From an uncultured Clostridia bacterium (GTDB lineage Bacteria > Bacillota > Clostridia > TANB77 > CAG-465), in the NCBI GenBank assembly GCA_934130325.1, contig CAKOYA010000001.1, positions 33,725 through 97,724 of the forward strand: a stretch of 64,000 nucleotides of DNA, written 5' to 3'. The notes beneath the pieces are model-generated. The model saw only the letters and a list, made by a program, of their open reading frames with translations. It was not told the origin of the DNA and ran no database searches. The position numbers and the translations under genes were made by a program. Within the stretch, counting starts at the first letter, position 1. Each line of letters begins with the position of its first letter. Shown in pieces: positions 5,679 through 63,633 of this stretch.

Positions 5679-6074
5679 ATGGCAAAGAAAGAATATATAT
5701 ATGCAACAGGTAAAAGAAAATCATCTATAGCTAGAGTTAATATAATACCTGGTACAGGTAAAATAACTATAAACAAAAAAGATATGGATGAAGTTTACAC
5801 TTTAGATACATTAAAGGCAATTGTTTTAAAACCTTTTAAAGTAGCTAATATGATGGAAAAATATGATGTTATTGCTACAGTAAATGGTGGTGGATTCTCT
5901 GGTCAAGCTGGTGCTATTGCACATGGTATTGCTAAAGCTCTTGCAACAACTGATCCAGAAGTTCGTACAATATTAAAGAGAAATGGTCTTCTTACTAGAG
6001 ATTCTAGAGTAAAAGAAAGAAGAAAATATGGTCTTAAAAAGGCAAGAAAAGCACCACAATTCTCAAAGAGATAA
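5679..6074 (+). CDS. rpsI: 30S ribosomal protein S9
   Basis: [19 protein letters not shown]...[17 protein letters not shown]. Confidence 0.95.
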
Positions 6075-6146
6075 AAAAAGCTTTTATCAAAAGCAATTTA
6101 ACCTCAGAAGTTTCAAGGCTTCCGAGGTTTTTTGTTGCTGCTTGGT
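6075..6146. repeat. direct repeat copy A (attL-like): rpsI 3' end and terminator
   Basis: aagagataaaaaaagcttttatcaaaagcaatttaacctcagaagtttcaaggcttccgaggtttttt is ~88% identical to 16318-16390. Confidence 0.8.
6101..6135 (+). terminator. rho-independent terminator of rplM-rpsI (cctcagaag...cttccgagg + T-run)
   Basis: stem-loop followed by ttttttg. Confidence 0.7.
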
Positions 6147-13741: not shown

Positions 13742-14737
13742 TCATGTTATATACTTTCTATGTGAATTTTTCACATTATTCTGATTTACCATTGCATATT
13801 CCATTGTCGTATCTATTTTTATGTGCCCTAATAATTTTTGAACTTGTTCTATTGGCATACCTTTATCAATAGCCATCGTTGCCATTGTTCTTCTAAATTT
13901 ATGTGGATGCACCTTGTTTATGTTTACTTGTTTTCCTAAATTTCTAATAGCAATTTCAATCCTTGATATTCCTAATCTATTATAAGGTTTTATTAATGAC
14001 ACAAATAATGCTTCATTGTTATCCATCCTTGTTTCTAAATATTTCTTTATATACATTTTACTCTTTGCACTAAAATAAACTTCTCTTTCACTATTACCTT
14101 TACCTAAAACAATACAGCTTCTTTATTGAAAATTTATATCAGCTATATTTAATCTAGTAAGTTCTCCAACTCTCATACCAGTTGAAATTAATAGTTCTAA
14201 TATTGCTAAATCTCTTACATTTGAGCAAGTATCTCTTAACCTTTCTAAATTCTCATCTGTTAATGTTTCTTTAACTCTTCTAGTCGTTTTTACTTTGTGA
14301 ATCCTTCTAACTGGACTTTTTACAATATAATCTTCGTTTTCTAACCAGCCAAAGAAACTTGATAATGTTCTTCTTATATTATCTGTTGTTACCATACCTG
14401 CATTTGAATTACTTTTATACTCGGATAAATAGTTTCTTAACGTTTCGGTAGTAATCTCATCTATTGGAAGATTTACAGTATCAAGCATTTTATTTATATT
14501 ATCTCTGTAATAATTTAAAGTTCTTATCGAACAACCTTCAATGTCTTTAGATGATATAAATCTATTCAAAAGTTCTTTATTATTCTTTTGTATTTCTTCC
14601 TTTTGACTTTGTTCTAGTACTTCAATTCTATAATATATGCATATTTCTGTAAGTTTTTCTTTTAGTTTTATTCTTTGGTTGTTGTCTAAAAAATCTGTAG
14701 TTTCATCAACTACTTTTTCAACAAATAACTCTTTCAA
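13742..14737 (-). pseudogene. tyrosine site-specific integrase (XerC/D-like) with an in-frame TAA at 14123-14125
   Basis: N-part ...ISTGMRVGELTRLNIADINFQ then TAA, then the same frame continues RSCIVLGKGNSEREV...HPHKFRRTMAT...LLGHIKIDTTMEYAMVN (R..HxxR..Y catalytic set). Confidence 0.8.
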
Positions 14738-15134: not shown

Positions 15135-15536
15135 TTAATGCTTATATGCACTATAATTCCAATCATCCCCAATCACATATAAAAGTGATGGACATTTCTT
15201 GGACGGTACTAAAAGCATTCTACATTTTTGTTTATTAAATCTAAATACTATAATTTTACTATCATTTGTTAACCCTAATTCTTTTCTTATTCTTTCATCT
15301 ATTACTACATTTAATTCATATAATGGTAACATCTCATATCCTACTGATTTAGGCTTATTTTGAAAGTCTACCAATCTTACATTTGAAAGTTCCTTAAAGT
15401 TTTCGTATAATTCATATATTATTTCGTTACATTTTTCTTTTGTCTTTTTTATTATTTTTTCTATTGTATATTCTTTTGAATTAACAGAATACTTAAATGA
15501 AAGAATTATATTTTCATCATGTCTACATTCTAGCAT
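15135..15536 (-). CDS. uncharacterised 133-aa protein, candidate PanT-type toxin paired with Panacea antitoxin
   Basis: start overlaps the stop of the DUF4065 gene (15536); no known domain recognised. Confidence 0.45.
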   Translation of the reverse strand: MLECRHDENIILSFKYSVNSKEYTIEKIIKKTKEKCNEIIYELYENFKELSNVRLVDFQNKPKSVGYEMLPLYELNVVIDERIRKELGLTNDSKIIVFRFNKQKCRMLLVPSKKCPSLLYVIGDDWNYSAYKH

Positions 15537-15997
15537 TATATATTGCTATAGTTCTCCTTGAAATAATTTTGTATTGCTCTTTTGTCTATAACATGGTTTC
15601 TGTCTGTTTCTCTCCATGGTGTTTCTTGGTGTGTCATATCTCTTAGTTTCCATGCTGTATATTGTCCAAACCTATCATAAACTTTTTTTAATAATACTTT
15701 AGTATCTTCATCTAATTTATCATCATAATCTTCTTCATATTGTATTCCATTTGATCCAAATATTCTAAATTTATCATATATTTTTCTGATTACTGGTCCA
15801 TGTTCCCATGCTAAAAAATTTTCTTTTATTAAGCTCTCATCATTTTGGGCTAAATAACATCCTTGTGCATAATATAATAACTTTTGCAATTTTAAGTTTG
15901 TTATAAATTCAGAATCTCCAAAATTCATTTGTTTTCTATTTTCATTTAAAAACCAATTTGCAATGTCTATTGCACTATATTTTCCTTTATTGAACAT
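15536..15997 (-). CDS. Panacea-domain (DUF4065, SocA/GepA-like) antitoxin
   Basis: AIDIANWFLNE...ITNLKLQKLLYYAQGCYLA...FLAWEHGPVIRKIYDKF matches the DUF4065 pattern. Confidence 0.8.
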   Translation of the reverse strand: MFNKGKYSAIDIANWFLNENRKQMNFGDSEFITNLKLQKLLYYAQGCYLAQNDESLIKENFLAWEHGPVIRKIYDKFRIFGSNGIQYEEDYDDKLDEDTKVLLKKVYDRFGQYTAWKLRDMTHQETPWRETDRNHVIDKRAIQNYFKENYSNI

Positions 15998-16317
15998 AGA
16001 ATTCCCTACTTCTTTTAGATTTATAATATATTTTTTAACAATAATATATTATATAATAAATTTAGCATTTATTTTCATACATTATAAAACTTTTGTTTGC
16101 TTTTGTCAATAATTTCTATCTTTTTCTTATATATTCTTTATAATATGGTCTGTTTCCTATTACATTATAACATAATGCTTCATAAAATCAATAATTCTTA
16201 ACTAAATTTTTATATAATTTATATTCTTTTAACCATTACTTACATCTAAAATATAATAATCTTATAATATACAAAAATGTCATTTTTTATTGATAAATCA
16301 ACCTTTGTAATTTAGTA

Positions 16318-16390
16318 AGAGATAAGAAGAGCTTTTATCAAAATCAATTCAACCTCAGAAGTTTCAATACTTCCGAGGTTTTTATTTTTG
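16318..16390. repeat. direct repeat copy B (attR-like) of the rpsI 3' end/terminator
   Basis: aagagataagaagagcttttatcaaaatcaattcaacctcagaagtttcaatacttccgaggttttta; even keeps the K-R-stop codons of rpsI. Confidence 0.8.
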
Positions 16391-16493
16391 CTTGCCCTTT
16401 AAATTTAGTAAAAGGTACTATTTTATTATTGTATTATTCAAAACCTCGAAAATTTTAATATTTTACTTAAAATATTAGATTTATATACAAAAT

Positions 16494-16517
16494 ATCCAGT
16501 TCAACTATGAACTGGAT
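16494..16517 (-). terminator. perfect 10-bp inverted repeat atccagttca-acta-tgaactggat with T-run on minus strand (terminator of the 170-aa gene); second copy at 18355-18378
   Basis: palindrome read directly; lies at the duplication boundaries. Confidence 0.6.
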
Positions 16518-16529
16518 ATTTTCCGTTAC

Positions 16530-17042
16530 TTAATTAAGTAAATATTTTTTTACTAGCGCCTTAGAAAGCGCCATTTGAGATTTTTTTGTAAACACAAATT
16601 TGTTTTTTATATCTCCTCCGGTTTCAAATTCCATACCAATCAAAATTTCAACGATTTTAGCATTTATCATTTTCATACCCATTGGATCTTCTGGGTACTG
16701 ATTTATGACCATGTACGGAGTTATATTAAAATCGTCATATATATGATGGTTGTCAATTTTACAAAACGCAAATCCTGCCATCACAATGTCCTCAAGAGTA
16801 TTGTTATAAGTAGGATCAATATCCTTTATGTCAAGCACATCAAATGCTATTCGTACCTGACACCTATTAAGTGAATAATGCGGATCATAGCATACCCTCA
16901 TTGTTCCTATTAATTCCCTTGATTCTTTGCTAAATATCTCCAAATAAACTACAGGTGGAACGTCCTTTGGACGATCGATACACTCTACTGATAAGTAGAT
17001 TTTTCCGAAGTGGTTTAACATTGCAATCCACTCTCCTTTCAA
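16530..17042 (-). CDS. hypothetical protein (170 aa), copy 1
   Basis: ORF; identical copy at 18391-18903. Confidence 0.5.
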   Translation of the reverse strand: MKGEWIAMLNHFGKIYLSVECIDRPKDVPPVVYLEIFSKESRELIGTMRVCYDPHYSLNRCQVRIAFDVLDIKDIDPTYNNTLEDIVMAGFAFCKIDNHHIYDDFNITPYMVINQYPEDPMGMKMINAKIVEILIGMEFETGGDIKNKFVFTKKSQMALSKALVKKYLLN

Positions 17043-17173
17043 AAATAATAATTATATTATATTACGGTAAACTATTTTTGTCAAGTATTTTTAAAAAGAT
17101 CACTAATATTACTGAATTTTTTATAAATAATAAATAGACACTAATTATATAATATAATTAATGTCTACTAATA

Positions 17174-18334
17174 TTATTGTTTATTTTGGGTAGTTGTATT
17201 AGTAATTGTAGAATCATTTCCAAGTGTAACTTCAATTTCTTGTTCCTTAGACGCTCTAACTATCTTTAATTTTATCTTATCACCGATTTTTTTAGTATTT
17301 TTATACTCATTTAATTTTTCCATAGTTTTTGATTCTTGACCATCAATGGCTATGATAATATCACCCTTTTGAATTCCTGCTACTGCTGCAGGTGAATTAG
17401 CATATATCTGTGCCACATAAACACCTTCTGTTAAATTATTTCTCTTAGCAGTAGTTTCATCAATATCAATTCCACCTATACCAATATATGGTCTTTCTAT
17501 CTTTCCTTTTGATATTAATTCGTCAATTACAGTCAGTGCATCATCTGTAGGAATCGCAAATCCTAAGCCTTCAACTTCTGTAGCTCCAATTTTTACTGTA
17601 TTTATTCCAATTACCTCACCTGAAGAATTAACTAATGCACCACCACTGTTTCCTGGATTTATAGCGGCATCTGTTTGTATTAACTTATATGTTCTTCCAT
17701 CAGTTGTAATCTTCCTATTTAAAGCTGATATATATCCAACTGTTACACTACCAGCAAACTCTTGACCTAATGGATTACCTATTGCTACAGCTAATTCTCC
17801 AACTTTTAAATCTGAGGATTTACCAATTTTTGCTGCCTTTAATCCTGTTTTATCTATCTTTATAACTGCTAGATCTGTAGTTTGATCCCCACCAACTATT
17901 GTTGCCTCTACTTCCTCATCCGAATTTGGGAAAGTAACAATAACTTTAGCAGTTGAATTGTTAATAGCAGACTCTATAACATGATAGTTTGTTATTATAT
18001 ACCCATCTTCCTTATATATTATGCCAGATCCTTCTTCATCAGATTCTGAAAGTGAGCCTAAGATATTTTGTGAAATATAATTTACTTTTACACCCACGAT
18101 TGATGGGCCTACATTTTCTGCTATTGCTACTACTGGATTTTCTACACTAGCAAATTCATATGATTTTGTTACTGACCCATCACTAGTTATCTGATTGGTA
18201 TTATTGGTTATTTTATTATCAATAGCAACATATGTAACTAAACTACCAAATACTCCTCCTATTAAAGCTATAATCAATATGACAACAACACTAGGTCCAG
18301 ATTTCTTTTCTTTAAACATAATTTTTTCATCCAT
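17174..18334 (-). CDS. htrA: HtrA/DegP-family serine protease with N-terminal TM anchor and C-terminal PDZ, copy 1
   Basis: catalytic H (ITNYHVIE), D (TDLAVIKID), S (GNSGGALVN); PDZ region GVYVAQIYANSPAAVAGIQKGDIIIAIDG. Confidence 0.9.
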   Translation of the reverse strand: MDEKIMFKEKKSGPSVVVILIIALIGGVFGSLVTYVAIDNKITNNTNQITSDGSVTKSYEFASVENPVVAIAENVGPSIVGVKVNYISQNILGSLSESDEEGSGIIYKEDGYIITNYHVIESAINNSTAKVIVTFPNSDEEVEATIVGGDQTTDLAVIKIDKTGLKAAKIGKSSDLKVGELAVAIGNPLGQEFAGSVTVGYISALNRKITTDGRTYKLIQTDAAINPGNSGGALVNSSGEVIGINTVKIGATEVEGLGFAIPTDDALTVIDELISKGKIERPYIGIGGIDIDETTAKRNNLTEGVYVAQIYANSPAAVAGIQKGDIIIAIDGQESKTMEKLNEYKNTKKIGDKIKLKIVRASKEQEIEVTLGNDSTITNTTTQNKQ

Positions 18335-18390
18335 AAAATTATCCCCTCCTACATATCCAGTTCAACTATGAACTGGATATGTTCTGTTAC

Positions 18391-18903
18391 TTAATTAAGT
18401 AAATATTTTTTTACTAGCGCCTTAGAAAGCGCCATTTGAGATTTTTTTGTAAACACAAATTTGTTTTTTATATCTCCTCCGGTTTCAAATTCCATACCAA
18501 TCAAAATTTCAACGATTTTAGCATTTATCATTTTCATACCCATTGGATCTTCTGGGTACTGATTTATGACCATGTACGGAGTTATATTAAAATCGTCATA
18601 TATATGATGGTTGTCAATTTTACAAAACGCAAATCCTGCCATCACAATGTCCTCAAGAGTATTGTTATAAGTAGGATCAATATCCTTTATGTCAAGCACA
18701 TCAAATGCTATTCGTACCTGACACCTATTAAGTGAATAATGCGGATCATAGCATACCCTCATTGTTCCTATTAATTCCCTTGATTCTTTGCTAAATATCT
18801 CCAAATAAACTACAGGTGGAACGTCCTTTGGACGATCGATACACTCTACTGATAAGTAGATTTTTCCGAAGTGGTTTAACATTGCAATCCACTCTCCTTT
18901 CAA
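18391..18903 (-). CDS. hypothetical protein (170 aa), copy 2
   Basis: identical to 16530-17042. Confidence 0.5.
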   Translation of the reverse strand: MKGEWIAMLNHFGKIYLSVECIDRPKDVPPVVYLEIFSKESRELIGTMRVCYDPHYSLNRCQVRIAFDVLDIKDIDPTYNNTLEDIVMAGFAFCKIDNHHIYDDFNITPYMVINQYPEDPMGMKMINAKIVEILIGMEFETGGDIKNKFVFTKKSQMALSKALVKKYLLN

Positions 18904-19034
18904 AAATAATAATTATATTATATTACGGTAAACTATTTTTGTCAAGTATTTTTAAAAAGATCACTAATATTACTGAATTTTTTATAAATAATAAATAGAC
19001 ACTAATTATATAATATAATTAATGTCTACTAATA

Positions 19035-20195
19035 TTATTGTTTATTTTGGGTAGTTGTATTAGTAATTGTAGAATCATTTCCAAGTGTAACTTCAATTTC
19101 TTGTTCCTTAGACGCTCTAACTATCTTTAATTTTATCTTATCACCGATTTTTTTAGTATTTTTATACTCATTTAATTTTTCCATAGTTTTTGATTCTTGA
19201 CCATCAATGGCTATGATAATATCACCCTTTTGAATTCCTGCTACTGCTGCAGGTGAATTAGCATATATCTGTGCCACATAAACACCTTCTGTTAAATTAT
19301 TTCTCTTAGCAGTAGTTTCATCAATATCAATTCCACCTATACCAATATATGGTCTTTCTATCTTTCCTTTTGATATTAATTCGTCAATTACAGTCAGTGC
19401 ATCATCTGTAGGAATCGCAAATCCTAAGCCTTCAACTTCTGTAGCTCCAATTTTTACTGTATTTATTCCAATTACCTCACCTGAAGAATTAACTAATGCA
19501 CCACCACTGTTTCCTGGATTTATAGCGGCATCTGTTTGTATTAACTTATATGTTCTTCCATCAGTTGTAATCTTCCTATTTAAAGCTGATATATATCCAA
19601 CTGTTACACTACCAGCAAACTCTTGACCTAATGGATTACCTATTGCTACAGCTAATTCTCCAACTTTTAAATCTGAGGATTTACCAATTTTTGCTGCCTT
19701 TAATCCTGTTTTATCTATCTTTATAACTGCTAGATCTGTAGTTTGATCCCCACCAACTATTGTTGCCTCTACTTCCTCATCCGAATTTGGGAAAGTAACA
19801 ATAACTTTAGCAGTTGAATTGTTAATAGCAGACTCTATAACATGATAGTTTGTTATTATATACCCATCTTCCTTATATATTATGCCAGATCCTTCTTCAT
19901 CAGATTCTGAAAGTGAGCCTAAGATATTTTGTGAAATATAATTTACTTTTACACCCACGATTGATGGGCCTACATTTTCTGCTATTGCTACTACTGGATT
20001 TTCTACACTAGCAAATTCATATGATTTTGTTACTGACCCATCACTAGTTATCTGATTGGTATTATTGGTTATTTTATTATCAATAGCAACATATGTAACT
20101 AAACTACCAAATACTCCTCCTATTAAAGCTATAATTAATATGACAACAACACTAGGTACAGACTTCTTTTCTTTAAACATAATTTTTTCATCCAT
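19035..20195 (-). CDS. htrA: HtrA/DegP-family serine protease, copy 2 (G12V relative to copy 1)
   Basis: identical to copy 1 except KKSVPS vs KKSGPS. Confidence 0.9.
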   Translation of the reverse strand: MDEKIMFKEKKSVPSVVVILIIALIGGVFGSLVTYVAIDNKITNNTNQITSDGSVTKSYEFASVENPVVAIAENVGPSIVGVKVNYISQNILGSLSESDEEGSGIIYKEDGYIITNYHVIESAINNSTAKVIVTFPNSDEEVEATIVGGDQTTDLAVIKIDKTGLKAAKIGKSSDLKVGELAVAIGNPLGQEFAGSVTVGYISALNRKITTDGRTYKLIQTDAAINPGNSGGALVNSSGEVIGINTVKIGATEVEGLGFAIPTDDALTVIDELISKGKIERPYIGIGGIDIDETTAKRNNLTEGVYVAQIYANSPAAVAGIQKGDIIIAIDGQESKTMEKLNEYKNTKKIGDKIKLKIVRASKEQEIEVTLGNDSTITNTTTQNKQ

Positions 20196-20209
20196 AAAAT
20201 TATCCCCTC

Positions 20210-21463
20210 CTACATTTCATTATTACTACCTGCAGCCACAGCTGTAGAGAATGCTATTTGCAGATTATATCCACCTGTATAGGCATCAATGTCTAAAACC
20301 TCTCCTGCAAAATATAAATTTTTTATAATCTTCGATTCCATCGTCTTAGGATTTACTTCCTTAACATTAATACCTCCACATGTTATAATTGCAAATTCTA
20401 GTGGCATTAAGTTATTTATCTTAATTGTTAAACTTTTTATACATTTTACTAACCTTTTTCTTTCTTCTTTAGTTATTTGATGCACTTTCTTATTTTCCTC
20501 AATACCAGACATAATTATAATTTGCGGTATAAGTTTTTGAGGTAGCAAATCATTTAAACTATTTTTAAATTCCTTATTTGAATTCTTATCAAAATCCCTG
20601 CAAATTCTCTTATCTAACGTTTTTTCATCTAAAGCTGGTTTTAAATCTATAATCGCACATATTTTACCCTGCTTTAATTTTTCAGAAACATTATCATACC
20701 TATTTAATATACTACTTGAACTCAAAACAACAGGTCCAGTTATTCCAAAATGTGCAAACATTAATTCACCAAAATCTTCATAAATATTCTTTTTTATATC
20801 CAAATCAAACAAACTGTATCTTATATTTTTAAGAGTCAAGCCTTGTAATTTTTTACATATACTATCACTACTTTTTAAAGGTACTAACCCTGGCAATAAT
20901 TTTTCAATACTATGCCCAACATTCTTAGAAATTGTATATCCATCACCTGTACTACCAGTTGTAGAATAACTCATACCACCAGTCGCTAATATACATTTTT
21001 CACAATATATTTTTTCACCATTATCAAGTTTTACTCCAATCAAAGAATTTTCGTTTAAAATAATGTTAGCAACACTAGAATTAAATAAAATTTTGACTCT
21101 TTGTTGTTTTAATTTTTCTTTTAGAGCGCTTACTACCTCATTTGCATCATCTGATACTGGAAATACCCTATTTCCACGTTCAATTTTAGTTTTTACACCA
21201 AGTTTCTCGAAAAAATCTATAGTATCGTTGTTATCAAAATTATTAAAGCTACTATATAAAAATCTATAGTTCTTAACAACATTATTTTTAAAATCTTCTG
21301 AATCACCAGCAAAAGTTAAATTACAACGACCTTTTCCAGTTATTTTTAACTTATTTCCAAGACTATCTGTTTTTTCTATTAACAATACATCATTTCCTTG
21401 GGTAGAAGCAGTAATAGCTGCCATCATCCCAGCTGCTCCACCCCCTATTACAATAACTTTCAT
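20210..21463 (-). CDS. HI0933/BaiN-family FAD-dependent flavoprotein
   Basis: MKVIVIGGGAAGMMAAITA...GKGRCNLT dinucleotide-binding N-terminus; 417 aa. Confidence 0.7.
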   Translation of the reverse strand: MKVIVIGGGAAGMMAAITASTQGNDVLLIEKTDSLGNKLKITGKGRCNLTFAGDSEDFKNNVVKNYRFLYSSFNNFDNNDTIDFFEKLGVKTKIERGNRVFPVSDDANEVVSALKEKLKQQRVKILFNSSVANIILNENSLIGVKLDNGEKIYCEKCILATGGMSYSTTGSTGDGYTISKNVGHSIEKLLPGLVPLKSSDSICKKLQGLTLKNIRYSLFDLDIKKNIYEDFGELMFAHFGITGPVVLSSSSILNRYDNVSEKLKQGKICAIIDLKPALDEKTLDKRICRDFDKNSNKEFKNSLNDLLPQKLIPQIIIMSGIEENKKVHQITKEERKRLVKCIKSLTIKINNLMPLEFAIITCGGINVKEVNPKTMESKIIKNLYFAGEVLDIDAYTGGYNLQIAFSTAVAAGSNNEM

Positions 21464-45908: not shown

Positions 45909-48038
45909 TTAAATACCAGTATTTGGTAATTTTTTAATGTATTTTATACAATTATTACTTATATTTGCACTTATTTGCTTTTCATTCTCACTAATTGTTA
46001 CTTCGTATAAATCTGAACTCAAAATATATTTATTATTCGATTTTGTCTCTTTTATGTAATAGATGCCTTTTGGCAATTCTTTTGTTATCGCTACCCCCTC
46101 TTTATTTGTCACTATTCTTTCAATAATATTTTTATCTTTATCCAAAATTTCAAATTCAGTATCAGGTATTACATCACCTTTTTTTATTCCTAATTCTTCA
46201 TTATTTTCATTACTTGTTTTTATAATCTTTATTTTTCCCTTTATTAATTTATTCTGTACATTAAGCTCAACTACTTCTTTATGATTAACTATATTTACTA
46301 TATTTATCGTCTCATCTAATACATATAGTTCATTTGATTTTACCTCCTTAACAAAATATTGTCCCTTTGGTAAATCTCTTGTTATTGCTACTCCATCCTT
46401 ATCTGTCGTAACTTCATCAACTATTTGATTTTTATTATTTAATATTTCAAATTTAGTATTAGGTATTGCATCACCTCTTTTCATTCCTAAAATTTGATTT
46501 TCTTCACTACTTGTCTTTATAATTTTTATTTTTCCTTTTATTAAAGTATTTTCAACATTTAACGTTATTTGTTGATTATGATCCTTTATTTCTATAACAT
46601 ATATATTTTCACTTAAAACATATTTATCATTTGCCTTTACCTCTTTTATATAATAAATCCCTTTAGGTAAATCCTTTGTTATTGCCACTCCTTCTTCATT
46701 TGTTACTATTTTATCAACAACTTTTCCATTTGAATCTAAAATTTCAAACTCTGTATTTGGAATAAATACACTATTATTAAAGTTAAAATTTTCATCATCT
46801 TGACTACTCTTTTTTATTAGTTTTATATTCCCTTTTATCTTCTCATTTTCTATAACTATGGAATTTTCTTGTCCGGACTTCAATTTTAAATTATAACTAT
46901 TATTTGTAGTATCTAAAAAATACTCGTCATTTGTTTCTACCTCTTGAATAATAACATTCTTATCGATAAAATAGTTAAATTCTTTTTGCGTATCTATAGT
47001 TATTTTTCCATCTTTATCTGTAGTATACTCTCCTAATTTTTTCCCAGTATTTTTATCCAATATTCTAAACTTTACTCCTGGTATCTTTAGTTCCTTATTT
47101 TCCATATCTACCTTTGTTATTTTTAAAGTGGTTGGAATATATTTAATATTTAAATTTAAATTAACTATGTCATTTCTTATTGGCTTCAAAGCCAATGCTG
47201 TATTTTGTTTGTTTGAATCTGTGGATAATCCAAACATAACTAAATTTTCTTTTACATCACATGAAAATTTAATATTTATATTTCTATCTTCTAATATTTT
47301 TTCTCTTAATATTAATACTTTTACTTCTTTTTGATTAGTAATATTTTCAATTACATTATTATTTAGATCGGATATTTTTACTAAATTATCCGTACTTGTA
47401 TAATTAATATTTTTAACATTATTGTTATAATCAAGCTTTATTTTTTTACTATAATATTCTGGATTTTTATCATCAATTTTAAATTCATTATCAATACTTA
47501 CTATATTTACCTTATTACTTAAAATACTGCTATTCATTCCATTATAATATATATTTTTTATTGCTTCAACCACCCTTATACAATCATTATTTAACGGTTC
47601 AATTAAAGAAAAATCTAAGTTACTTATATATGTCCAAACTGCAAATTGTGTTGAAAATCTTGCCTCTTCCTTAGTGTTTAATCCTAACTCTTCAACAGAT
47701 CTATACGGATAACCGTTCAAAATAATATTTGAAAGTTTCTCGTCATCAATTTTTTTTAGTACATCAACATCATACTCTCCCTTTTCAGCTCCATCCATTC
47801 CTAAATTTATACAATAAGCTGGATAACTATTTCCATTATTATCCAAATAATAATAATCAAAAAATTTTTGAGATACAGAATTATACTTTATGTACCTATT
47901 TTCATTTTTGTTGTAATAAATCCTATACTTTTTTAAATCAATATTTGTATTTTCATATGATGCAAATATATTACTAATATTTACAAATAGCATCATAAAT
48001 ACAATCACTATACTATACAATTTTAAAATTTTTCTCAT
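45909..48038 (-). CDS. Cna-B/SpaA-type repeat surface protein with signal peptide and C-terminal LPNTG, but no hydrophobic anchor or charged tail
   Basis: MRKILKLYSIVIVFMMLFV signal; three ~95-aa repeats IKGKIKIIKTS...ELPKGIYYIKE; ends ...KKLPNTGI-stop. Confidence 0.75.
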   Translation of the reverse strand: MRKILKLYSIVIVFMMLFVNISNIFASYENTNIDLKKYRIYYNKNENRYIKYNSVSQKFFDYYYLDNNGNSYPAYCINLGMDGAEKGEYDVDVLKKIDDEKLSNIILNGYPYRSVEELGLNTKEEARFSTQFAVWTYISNLDFSLIEPLNNDCIRVVEAIKNIYYNGMNSSILSNKVNIVSIDNEFKIDDKNPEYYSKKIKLDYNNNVKNINYTSTDNLVKISDLNNNVIENITNQKEVKVLILREKILEDRNINIKFSCDVKENLVMFGLSTDSNKQNTALALKPIRNDIVNLNLNIKYIPTTLKITKVDMENKELKIPGVKFRILDKNTGKKLGEYTTDKDGKITIDTQKEFNYFIDKNVIIQEVETNDEYFLDTTNNSYNLKLKSGQENSIVIENEKIKGNIKLIKKSSQDDENFNFNNSVFIPNTEFEILDSNGKVVDKIVTNEEGVAITKDLPKGIYYIKEVKANDKYVLSENIYVIEIKDHNQQITLNVENTLIKGKIKIIKTSSEENQILGMKRGDAIPNTKFEILNNKNQIVDEVTTDKDGVAITRDLPKGQYFVKEVKSNELYVLDETINIVNIVNHKEVVELNVQNKLIKGKIKIIKTSNENNEELGIKKGDVIPDTEFEILDKDKNIIERIVTNKEGVAITKELPKGIYYIKETKSNNKYILSSDLYEVTISENEKQISANISNNCIKYIKKLPNTGI
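46000..47100. repeat. ~290-bp coding tandem repeats (Cna-B domain repeats) inside the surface-protein gene
   Basis: recurring cctttggtaaatctcttgttattgctactcc-type segments at ~46060, 46360, 46660. Confidence 0.7.
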
Positions 48039-62856: not shown

Positions 62857-63088
62857 ACTATCCTCCTTGTTACCCAACCAACGCAAGACTATTATATATA
62901 AATTTTTTAAAAAAATCAAGCTTATTTGTCACTTTTTTAGGACGAGTTTTGTCGAATAAATCAATAAATCTTATTTTTTTATTATTCCTAATTTTACCAG
63001 TATTTTTTCGACAAATAAACACAAATTAATAGTATAAATGTAATAGTTAAATATTCATTTATAATTCTTATTTTAGGAGGTGAATTAA

Positions 63089-63277
63089 ATGGCAAGAGGA
63101 GCTAAAAGTAATCCACAAGCTAGAGAAAATCTAAACAAATTTAAATATGAAGTTGCAAACCAAATTGGTGTTAATTTAAAAGAAGGTTACAATGGTGATT
63201 TAACTTCTAAACAAGCTGGTTCTATCGGTGGTGAAATGGTTAAAAGAATGATAGAAAAAGCTGCTGGTCAAATGTAA
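63089..63277 (+). CDS. ssp: small acid-soluble spore protein, alpha/beta type
   Basis: ANQIGVNLKEGYNGDLTSKQAGSIGGEMVKRMIE. Confidence 0.95.
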   Translation: MARGAKSNPQARENLNKFKYEVANQIGVNLKEGYNGDLTSKQAGSIGGEMVKRMIEKAAGQM

Positions 63278-63423
63278 TTTTAATGAAAATTTTATAATAA
63301 TTAATTTTTTCATGAATAATTAGACCATAAAAATACTTAAAAAATTAAATTTTTGCATTAAATGTGTATAATTATAAAAATATAGTTAAAACTATTAATG
63401 AAAACGATGGAGGTGAATAAACA

Positions 63424-63606
63424 ATGGCAAGTTCAAAGAACAAACAAGCACAAGAAAACTTAAACAAGTTAAAAATGGAAGTTGCTAGCCAAATAGGTGT
63501 TAACCTAAAAAATGGTTATAATGGTGATTTAACTTCTAAACAAGCTGGTTCTGTTGGTGGTGAAATGGTTAAAAGAATGATAGAAAAAGCTGCTGGTCAA
63601 ATGTAA
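63424..63606 (+). CDS. ssp: small acid-soluble spore protein, alpha/beta type (second copy)
   Basis: ASQIGVNLKNGYNGDLTSKQAGSVGGEMVKRMIE. Confidence 0.95.
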   Translation: MASSKNKQAQENLNKLKMEVASQIGVNLKNGYNGDLTSKQAGSVGGEMVKRMIEKAAGQM

Positions 63607-63633
63607 TTTAACTTATTTTAAACTTTAGAACAT

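Follow-up and report, generated by a model that had tools for sequence, protein, structure and literature searches.

Tandem duplications are thought to be the commonest of bacterial mutations and the most short-lived, and they have almost always been studied in the laboratory. In Salmonella and Escherichia coli, RecA-independent duplications with short junctions form at palindromes or hairpins, and the tufA/tufB genes and the rRNA operons undergo concerted evolution by gene conversion. The rnk-citT duplication of Cit+ E. coli from the long-term evolution experiment, reportedly described by Blount et al. in 2012, is said to have been a promoter-capture module. An amplification in E. coli was joined at microhomologies and captured a promoter (PMC6614815), and in quasipalindrome-associated template-switch mutation a base in one arm of an imperfect inverted repeat is changed so that it pairs with the opposite arm, and the hairpin is thereby perfected (PMC7202029). 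Here we analysed a 64,000-nucleotide (nt) stretch of DNA, hereafter the window, from an uncultured Clostridia bacterium of the human gut (25–30% GC in the window; contig CAKOYA010000001.1, positions 33,725 to 97,724), in which htrA and a small gene for a 170-amino-acid (aa) protein stand, as assembled, in two head-to-tail copies.

The array belongs to known kinds of event, namely microhomology duplication, promoter capture and gene conversion, of which it is a tidy natural example found in multiple hosts. The best overall explanation, which we hold with fair confidence, is an old duplication of single origin whose copies have evolved in concert and whose inner htrA would have captured the promoter of its new neighbour. 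The array thus offers a small duplication with a joint resolved to the base pair that can be followed across strains and human hosts, and that shows persistence, concerted evolution and a probable return to a single copy. Should the promoter of the neighbouring gene indeed drive the inner htrA, the array would be a natural counterpart of laboratory promoter-capture duplications and a sign that the dose of HtrA is under selection in an uncultured lineage of gut Clostridia.

An 1861-bp unit in two adjacent direct copies

To define the period of the repeat and its mismatches, we shifted the window by 1861 base pairs (bp) against its own sequence. Positions 16492–18354 matched 18353–20215, which corresponds to two 1861-bp units plus two shared bases, 'AT'. 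On the minus strand, to which all of these genes belong, the order is flavoprotein gene, htrA N, 170-aa gene, hairpin, htrA J, 170-aa gene, hairpin, where N denotes the native and J the junction-side copy (Table 1). The units are 99.73% identical and differ at exactly five positions (copy 1/copy 2: 16520 T/G, 16524 C/T, 18275 C/T, 18297 C/A and 18302 T/C). All five single-nucleotide polymorphisms (SNPs) lie at most 33 nt from the start of the unit or at most 78 nt from its end, and the 1750 bp of the interior (16525–18274) are identical between the copies as assembled. Such clustering at the edges has a probability of about 7.5e-7 under a uniform model (Fisher's test, 7e-7).

The sequences that flank the unit showed no similarity to each other beyond 'AT' when compared within the window. 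These two bases, at 18353–18354 in the joint, recur at 16492–16493 and at 20214–20215, and they are all that the parental breakpoints have in common, as expected of a microhomology joint. The copies are adjacent and direct, and the joint between them is novel, being absent from the contigs of other samples that carry a single copy (L002, L070 and L074). We are thus highly confident that this is a genuine tandem duplication, present in several samples. The original prediction, which was made from the letters alone, had placed near-identical units at 16492–18352 and 18353–20213, with identical 170-aa products, HtrA proteins differing only by G12V, some five SNPs near the unit ends and a 2-bp 'at' microhomology at the junction, and the offset comparison, the translations and the unrelated flanks bear out this description.

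The breakpoints fall on probable regulatory signals

Both breakpoints lie exactly on probable regulatory signals. The left one falls between the hairpin of the 170-aa gene and its U tract, parting a terminator-like hairpin from that tract, and the right one (20213|20214) lies inside the final sense codon of the gene upstream of htrA, which encodes the flavoprotein. A perfect palindrome does open each unit, as had been noted before, but its perfect arms are of 12 bp (ATATCCAGTTCA / TGAACTGGATAT) and not of 10 bp. The loop measures 4 nt, and additional pairing brings the arms to 15 bp in the native context on the left and to 14 bp across the joint. The motif was found at only two places within the window (0 expected by chance), and scans of JGI metagenomes with the hairpin alone and with the joint each gave 0 matches.

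The native hairpin, with a predicted RNA fold of -20.3 kcal/mol (z = -5.3), is a probable intrinsic terminator, and strains with an otherwise different left flank still have it, together with TTTT. At the joint, the hairpin is followed by GUAGGAGGGG, in contrast to the U-rich tail found in both native left-flank variants. Like the RecA-independent short-junction duplications, the array has no long end repeats, overlaps by 2 bp at the joint and has one breakpoint at the base of a palindrome, and palindrome-stimulated template switching, as originally proposed, is a plausible origin. Unlike those cases, it offers a single old joint from which the mechanism is not reconstructable, and no remnant of an inverted duplication is visible.

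One of the SNPs lies in the joint itself, where it lengthens the stem from 12 to 14 bp and lowers the fold energy from -18.3 to -21.4 kcal/mol. On the gene strand it is an A-to-C change that pairs with the G of AUGUAGG, the mutant base being the complement of the opposing arm. The base at this position is A in all three native contexts, including that of the divergent contig L075. The 10-mer before the hairpin occurs in four versions, CAGA..A (L075), CAGA..C (the joints), CGGA..A (left copy of the window) and TACA..A (left copy of L071); hence A at 18385 is ancestral and C (gene strand) at 18381 is specific to the joint copy. The change has the pattern of a quasipalindrome template-switch mutation, with selection for a stable stem, or chance, as alternatives. 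It resembles such mutations (PMC7202029) in that the change at window 18381 takes the stem from 12 to 14 bp, and differs from them in that one base only was corrected while the next outward mismatch was left as it was.

An integron cassette was also considered and rejected: the nearby recombinase gene is split, scores 34–38 bits against an integron-integrase cut-off of 265, and lies co-oriented 1.8 kb downstream. The hairpin, a perfect 12-bp palindrome with a 4-nt loop that occurs in the unit only, is also unlike the imperfect attC sites in which cassettes end.

The same joint recurs in five samples and in a diverged lineage

Contigs from other samples were retrieved by exact-protein look-ups, and all of the data are short-read metagenome assemblies. 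An identical 51-nt joint was present in five independent gut-metagenome samples, namely the biosample of the window, SAMEA4765921 (contigs L001/L007), SRR26844679 (L005), Hadza-Nepal A_14_1640 (L008, an 85-kb contig that is 99.94% identical), Hadza F_17_1567 (L071) and SAMEA4765857 (L072). Contigs L001/L007, L006 and L008 likewise show the right flank first, then copy 2, the joint and copy 1. In L006, which is from a second assembly of the window's biosample (the two assemblies are S001 and S002), a gap of 100 N separates the right flank from the joint, and copy J and 8 kb of the left flank come next. Contigs L009 and L010 end at the repeat boundary, and L011 is a 1750-bp unitig that extends from SNP 16524 to SNP 18275; such breaks at repeat ends and at SNPs are what a repeat produces in an assembly graph. 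Three contigs (L002, L070 and L074) run from right flank to left flank through a single copy and bear the 'outer' alleles, which fits either a collapsed array or the ancestral state.

At every joint the alleles on the joint side agree, with AACAGAACAT ahead of the hairpin and the G12 haplotype following it. They do so even in L071, which with L072 and L073 forms a lineage that is about 1.7% diverged and differs from the window at 28–29 of about 1700 interior sites. The left copy of L071 reads AATACAAAAT before the hairpin, and its left flank is unrelated to that of the window from 16484 leftwards. The joint-side end of copy N in L071 is unlike its own left copy at 3 of 10 bases and identical to copy N of the window. 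Since the L071 joint is thus the window's joint and not a derivative of L071's own left sequence, the array would have one origin that predates the split of the lineages. The duplication had been described as recent, a view that does not hold, since five samples share one and the same joint and strains that carry it stand about 1.7% apart, one having a different left flank.

Copies are closer to each other within a lineage than between lineages, the hallmark of concerted evolution. Between L071 copy J and L072 copy N there were 0 differences at 1639 interior sites, and between the two window copies 0 at 1731, counts that refer to collapsed short-read interiors; both L071 copy J and L072 copy N differ from both window copies at the same 28–29 sites. 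Two sites near enough to unique sequence for phasing to the joint and to the left flank, 16569/16570, read AT in either copy of L071 and CG in either copy of the window. In both lineages, by contrast, the copies differ within the last 33 nt of the unit; on our reading, the differences sit at the edges because only the outermost 33–78 nt of each unit escape homogenisation. From these comparisons of sequence, a single old origin followed by homogenisation of the copies appears very probable. Gene conversion of the core, as suggested originally, survives in that homogenisation is the best reading of 28–29 differences between lineages and none within them, although the identity of the interiors is not independently secured. 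Sister strains had been expected to show a single copy, and two diverged ancient paralogues in relatives were to refute the proposal; this has in part come about, since the diverged lineage has the joint and two copies, although these are homogenised and not diverged.

In this respect the array behaves like tufA/tufB and the rRNA operons, whose copies are closer within a lineage and whose differences survive at the borders of homologous tracts. It departs from them in that the copies are directly adjacent, so that unequal exchange and collapse are possible, and in that it is known from short-read assemblies and not from phased genomes.

A consensus promoter upstream of the inner htrA

The layout of the array is that of a promoter capture. 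The inner copy, htrA J, has only 18 nt of its native upstream sequence, which retains G-TAG-GAGGGG-8 nt-ATG, and it now lies downstream of a co-oriented promoter of the 170-aa gene that matches the sigma-70 consensus at 12 of 12 positions. The native htrA begins so close behind the flavoprotein gene that it has no room within the unit for a promoter of its own. As in the known promoter-capture duplications (PMC6614815; rnk-citT), a few kb are repeated head to tail and the joint puts a promoterless copy behind the promoter of another gene; the joint at a microhomology is likewise shared with the events of PMC6614815. Unlike laboratory promoter capture, this one would have taken place in wild gut bacteria, the captured gene has an expressed native copy, a hairpin stands between promoter and gene, and the change in expression is one that we infer.

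We propose the following course of events. A single illegitimate joining at a 2-bp microhomology would have linked the foot of the terminator hairpin of the 170-aa gene to the last codon of the gene upstream of htrA, plausibly triggered by a replication stall or a template switch at the hairpin. As far as short-read assemblies show, the array is older than the divergence of the strains, has been inherited in at least two lineages and occurs in several human hosts, and gene conversion or unequal exchange has kept the copies evolving in concert and spared the outermost edges. The SNP at the joint would have perfected the new hairpin, in the manner of a quasipalindrome-templated change. The result would be a new operon, consisting of the promoter of the 170-aa gene, the 170-aa gene itself, a hairpin without U tract and htrA J, the last reached by read-through, so that the captured promoter would add a differently regulated dose of HtrA. 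Such a dose would explain the persistence of an intrinsically unstable array.

Promoter capture by read-through into the inner htrA is a tentative proposal, resting on the arrangement of the sequence, that could well go either way. A bolder version of it is improbable: that the array is a selectively maintained promoter-capture module that expands and collapses (1, 2 or more copies) and acts as a copy-number contingency locus for the dose of an envelope-stress protease, its joint hairpin having been tuned by the perfecting SNP to let transcription pass and to leave the ribosome-binding site (RBS) free.

A promoter-like site created by the joint itself (TTGAAC, 16 nt, GATAAT; 18338–18365, minus strand, 9/12) was considered and set aside. 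Its -35 box is in the hairpin arm and its -10 box, which ends 4 nt before the ATG, lies between RBS and ATG; the site is probably irrelevant because its transcript would be without an RBS.

Table 1 Features of the duplicated region, in window coordinates
Feature	Position	Strand	Remarks
Native hairpin (probable terminator)	16489..16522	-	15-bp arms including the A/U extension; 10 nt past the stop of the 170-aa gene; then U-rich tail UUUGUAUAU
Unit copy 1 (J copy)	16492..18352	-	Junction-side htrA and 170-aa gene; probable native terminator and left flank retained; from the offset-1861 comparison
170-aa gene, copy 1	16530..17042	-	Public gene calls start at ATG 17021, giving 163 aa
Consensus sigma-70-type promoter of 170-aa gene, copy 1	17056..17084	-	TTGACA, 17 nt, TATAAT; 12/12
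AT-rich palindrome (probable htrA terminator)	17130..17172	-	Right after the htrA stop; same element at 18991-19033; fold -19 kcal/mol, z = -6.4
htrA copy J (G12)	17174..18334	-	Trypsin_2 and PDZ, N-terminal membrane helix; 18 nt of native upstream sequence including RBS GGAGGGG (18343-18349)
Three-SNP haplotype at htrA 5' end	18275..18302	-	Two synonymous changes and G12V; copy 2 partners 20136, 20158, 20163
New joint	18351..18382	-	14-bp-arm hairpin formed across it; G at 18381 is a junction-specific SNP adding a C-G pair
Unit copy 2 (N copy)	18353..20213	-	htrA in native place after the flavoprotein gene, and 170-aa gene with hairpin abutting the joint
170-aa gene, copy 2	18391..18903	-	Product identical to copy 1 product
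Same consensus promoter, copy 2	18917..18945	-	Proposed driver of 170-aa gene and htrA J by read-through
htrA copy N (V12)	19035..20195	-	Starts 14 nt after the flavoprotein gene; arrangement kept in about 35 related species
Flavoprotein gene, HI0933-like	20210..21463	-	Stop TAG (20210-20212) falls within the duplicated unit

Alternative explanations

Several observations weigh against an old array with concerted evolution and promoter capture. The interior copies in the window are the same graph path walked twice, so that their identity is partly true by construction, and L071 and L072 come from different samples, the identity of copies within that lineage being inferred across samples. At four sites of the interior (17579, 17541, 17116 and 17065), L006 and the window disagree; copy N of L008 has L006's four alleles, and the sites are mosaic among the contigs of other samples. 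This disagreement may reflect interior differences between the copies, or coexisting strains, and the number of copies may be 2, more than 2 or mixed within a population. The 'single-copy' contigs could be duplicated genomes from which the assembler dropped the loop, and the edge SNPs could be imports of flanking DNA from other strains rather than sites that escaped conversion. As to the proposed read-through, the hairpin is still at the joint, and has been strengthened, though its U tract was removed; it might still impede transcription. In addition, the native hairpin on the minus strand was not called by a simple consensus terminator scan.

The strongest competitor, which we nevertheless consider unlikely, accepts a real and old duplication and attributes the edge-only differences to the limits of short-read phasing, with interior differences hidden by bubble popping, together with homologous imports from other strains over the flanks and outer edges. 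Short-read metagenome assemblies can reveal how repeat copies differ only where unique sequence is no further off than roughly one k-mer or read length. The five SNPs are all close enough for short reads or k-mers to link them to unique sequence, none lying more than 78 nt from a unit end; contig L008 ends 157 nt inside copy J, at roughly the distance of the last SNP with one k-mer (77) added, and the unitig L011 runs exactly from SNP to SNP. The four interior sites, differing between assemblies of one biosample and mosaic among samples, also favour this explanation, as do the outer alleles (the V12 haplotype and G at 16524), which are those of the single-copy contigs, and the divergent left edge of L071, which travels with a different left flank. 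However, with five hidden interior differences allowed for, the edges would still be 16-fold enriched (P = 1.4e-4), and the 28–29 sites between lineages are far above any difference within a lineage, so that homogenisation of the core is still required. Given the limited phasing range, the pattern of identical core and divergent edges needs a long-read check.

It is also possible, if rather doubtful, that the inner htrA is a neutral and silent extra copy, with the joint hairpin blocking its transcription and the array persisting by drift or hitch-hiking. A joint hairpin that is intact and even stronger than before speaks for this, but the U tract needed for intrinsic termination is gone, and the array, both of its reading frames intact, is found across lineages and hosts. 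In Salmonella and E. coli, tandem duplications that are not selected for are normally lost quickly.

The remaining explanations fare much worse. Recurrent formation at a hairpin hotspot in separate lineages, which would make this an expandable contingency locus, would accord with a left breakpoint exactly at the foot of a strong hairpin, with a strain-variable left flank that begins 8 bp from that breakpoint, and with duplicated and single-copy forms that are intermingled among close strains. Yet a fresh event would copy a strain's own sequence, and the joint end of copy N in L071 departs from its own left copy in favour of the window's version; moreover, only 2 bp of homology could serve as a guide and no recombinase site was recognised. 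We consider recurrence very unlikely.

Equally improbable is an assembly artefact, in which no genome would have two copies and the joint would stem from chimeric reads, from a circular by-product of 1.86 kb or from the haplotypes of two strains strung together head to tail. The duplication does lie at a contig end in one assembly (scaffold_4490 ends at window 16327, inside the right repeat of the island-like segment described below), the interior is identical as it would be for a graph loop, and the assemblies disagree at the four interior sites. Still, a 2-bp overlap cannot come from k-mer overlap, so the joint is not assembler-made, and it was found in five samples and at least three pipelines. 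The joint-side alleles are unlike the outer alleles on both sides, which a circle excised from the same chromosome would not show, and paired-end scaffolding in L006 independently puts the joint, copy 1 and the left flank after the right flank. A collapsed or expanded assembly repeat, which the original prediction had allowed for, is thus rejected as far as an assembler-invented joint is concerned.

Least credible of all is a recent duplication confined to this strain, its five SNPs being new mutations or repair errors around the event: the near-identity of the copies and the closeness of the SNPs to the joint and outer ends would suit it, but the same joint and joint-side alleles occur in five samples and in the about 1.7% diverged lineage with another left flank, both 5' haplotypes of htrA are natively placed elsewhere, and the allele at 16524 is shared with single-copy contigs.

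The HtrA protein and its gene

The products of both copies were recognised as HtrA/DegP from matches to Pfam Trypsin_2 (7e-33) and PDZ_2 (5.5e-17) and from the His/Asp/Ser motifs NYHV, DLAV and GNSGG; the NCBIfam HtrA models match below their equivalog cut-offs. Residue 12 precedes the hydrophobic stretch (about residues 16–38) and is S, T, M, I or G among orthologues, which are too variable for the ancestral state of G/V to be polarised. Each haplotype was found in native position in another sample, V12 in L002 and G12, adjoining the flavoprotein gene, in L004. G12V had been put forward as a variant of the transmembrane anchor; with the residue lying before the helix, at a variable position, and with both haplotypes natively placed in other samples, this interpretation falls away and, judging from the sequence, an effect on localisation is unlikely.

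The TAG of the flavoprotein gene overlaps the RBS of the native htrA (20204–20215, ATG-TAG-GAGGGG), an arrangement that suggests translational coupling of this htrA to the flavoprotein gene. In the single-copy contig L074 (1225–2478), the flavoprotein gene was called as two open reading frames (ORFs) of 242 and 171 aa, so that this strain may have a frameshift or a stop codon there, unless the assembly is in error. A Clostridia metagenome-assembled genome (MAG) from cattle rectum (L057, 738–1658 and 2271–2732) has two adjacent, diverged htrA genes with 47% and 55% identity to the query, so that htrA tandem paralogues exist in a distant relative.

The 170-aa protein

The exact 170-aa product, with its TTG start, has no database record; the 163-aa form starting at ATG is on record. 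An indexed search with the protein returned its own cluster only, and an exhaustive HMMER search about 17 real relatives of about 160 aa each; a further candidate, P0008 (2299 aa, 40 'stretches'), was discarded as a repetitive protein and a spurious match. A scan of contigs found no relative in any GTDB species representative, the protein had no match in Pfam, NCBIfam, PHROGs, PADLOC or the sequences of PDB, and Pfam and NCBIfam gave no match for any of the 17 family members. An alignment-based AlphaFold2 model reached a predicted local distance difference test score (pLDDT) of 91; the single-sequence model (pLDDT 37) was useless. Nearly all of the top PDB matches of the model in Foldseek were GNATs, albeit weak ones (template modelling scores of 0.35–0.54, best E 5e-4), and the acetyl-CoA pyrophosphate-binding motif Q/R-x-x-G-x-G/A was absent from the family alignment as judged by eye. 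The protein belongs to a small, uncharacterised family that, going by the model, possibly has a GNAT-like fold. The genomic context of one homologue, P0025, is unrelated to htrA, and no functional tie between the 170-aa gene and htrA was found from family, structure or homologue context; the gene probably matters here for its promoter.

Ancestral arrangement and the variable left flank

The nearest HtrA proteins among GTDB species representatives have 80–83% aa identity and belong to MAGs of uncultured Clostridia from the guts of humans and animals. In the contig scan with HtrA, the window's own species had no GTDB species representative, and at this distance polarisation by an outgroup at the DNA level is impossible. 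About 35 related species have one htrA, placed directly behind the flavoprotein gene, and synteny stops right after it; one copy is therefore ancestral. Neither the 170-aa gene nor the toxin-antitoxin-like pair to its left was found in any of these species, and the 170-aa gene is thus accessory, at the margin of a variable region. Homology of the left flanks stops at window 16484, 8 bp from the left breakpoint, which places that breakpoint at the border of a strain-variable region. In L071 (1980–2404), L073 (1163–1565) and L075 (761–1306), the sequence left of the hairpin and TTTT is wholly unlike that of the window.

Further to the left, a 67-bp direct repeat (91% identical; 6066–6132 and 16317–16383) brackets about 10.2 kb that contain a split tyrosine recombinase gene, a SocA/Panacea pair and glycosyltransferase and NDP-sugar genes. 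The left copy of the repeat overlaps the 3' end of ORF 5679–6074, and the right copy includes a terminator-like hairpin (16351–16380), 109 bp from the duplication. By their layout, the repeats look like the att sites of an integrated island. The XerC/D-like recombinase gene is split into 13742–14056 and 14123–14737 on the minus strand (204 aa N-terminal and 104 aa C-terminal) and is probably a pseudogene. At 15135–15997, also on the minus strand, the stop of the gene for a SocA/Panacea-domain protein (153 aa) overlaps the start of that for a 133-aa protein, which belongs to no family and whose sole match is a weak one to KwaB/DUF4868 (E = 0.003); from their arrangement, the two resemble a toxin-antitoxin-like pair. 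Elsewhere in the window, local direct repeats occur at 63076–63280 and 63409–63609 (84% over 207 bp) and at 46006–46244 and 46600–46838 (72% over 239 bp).

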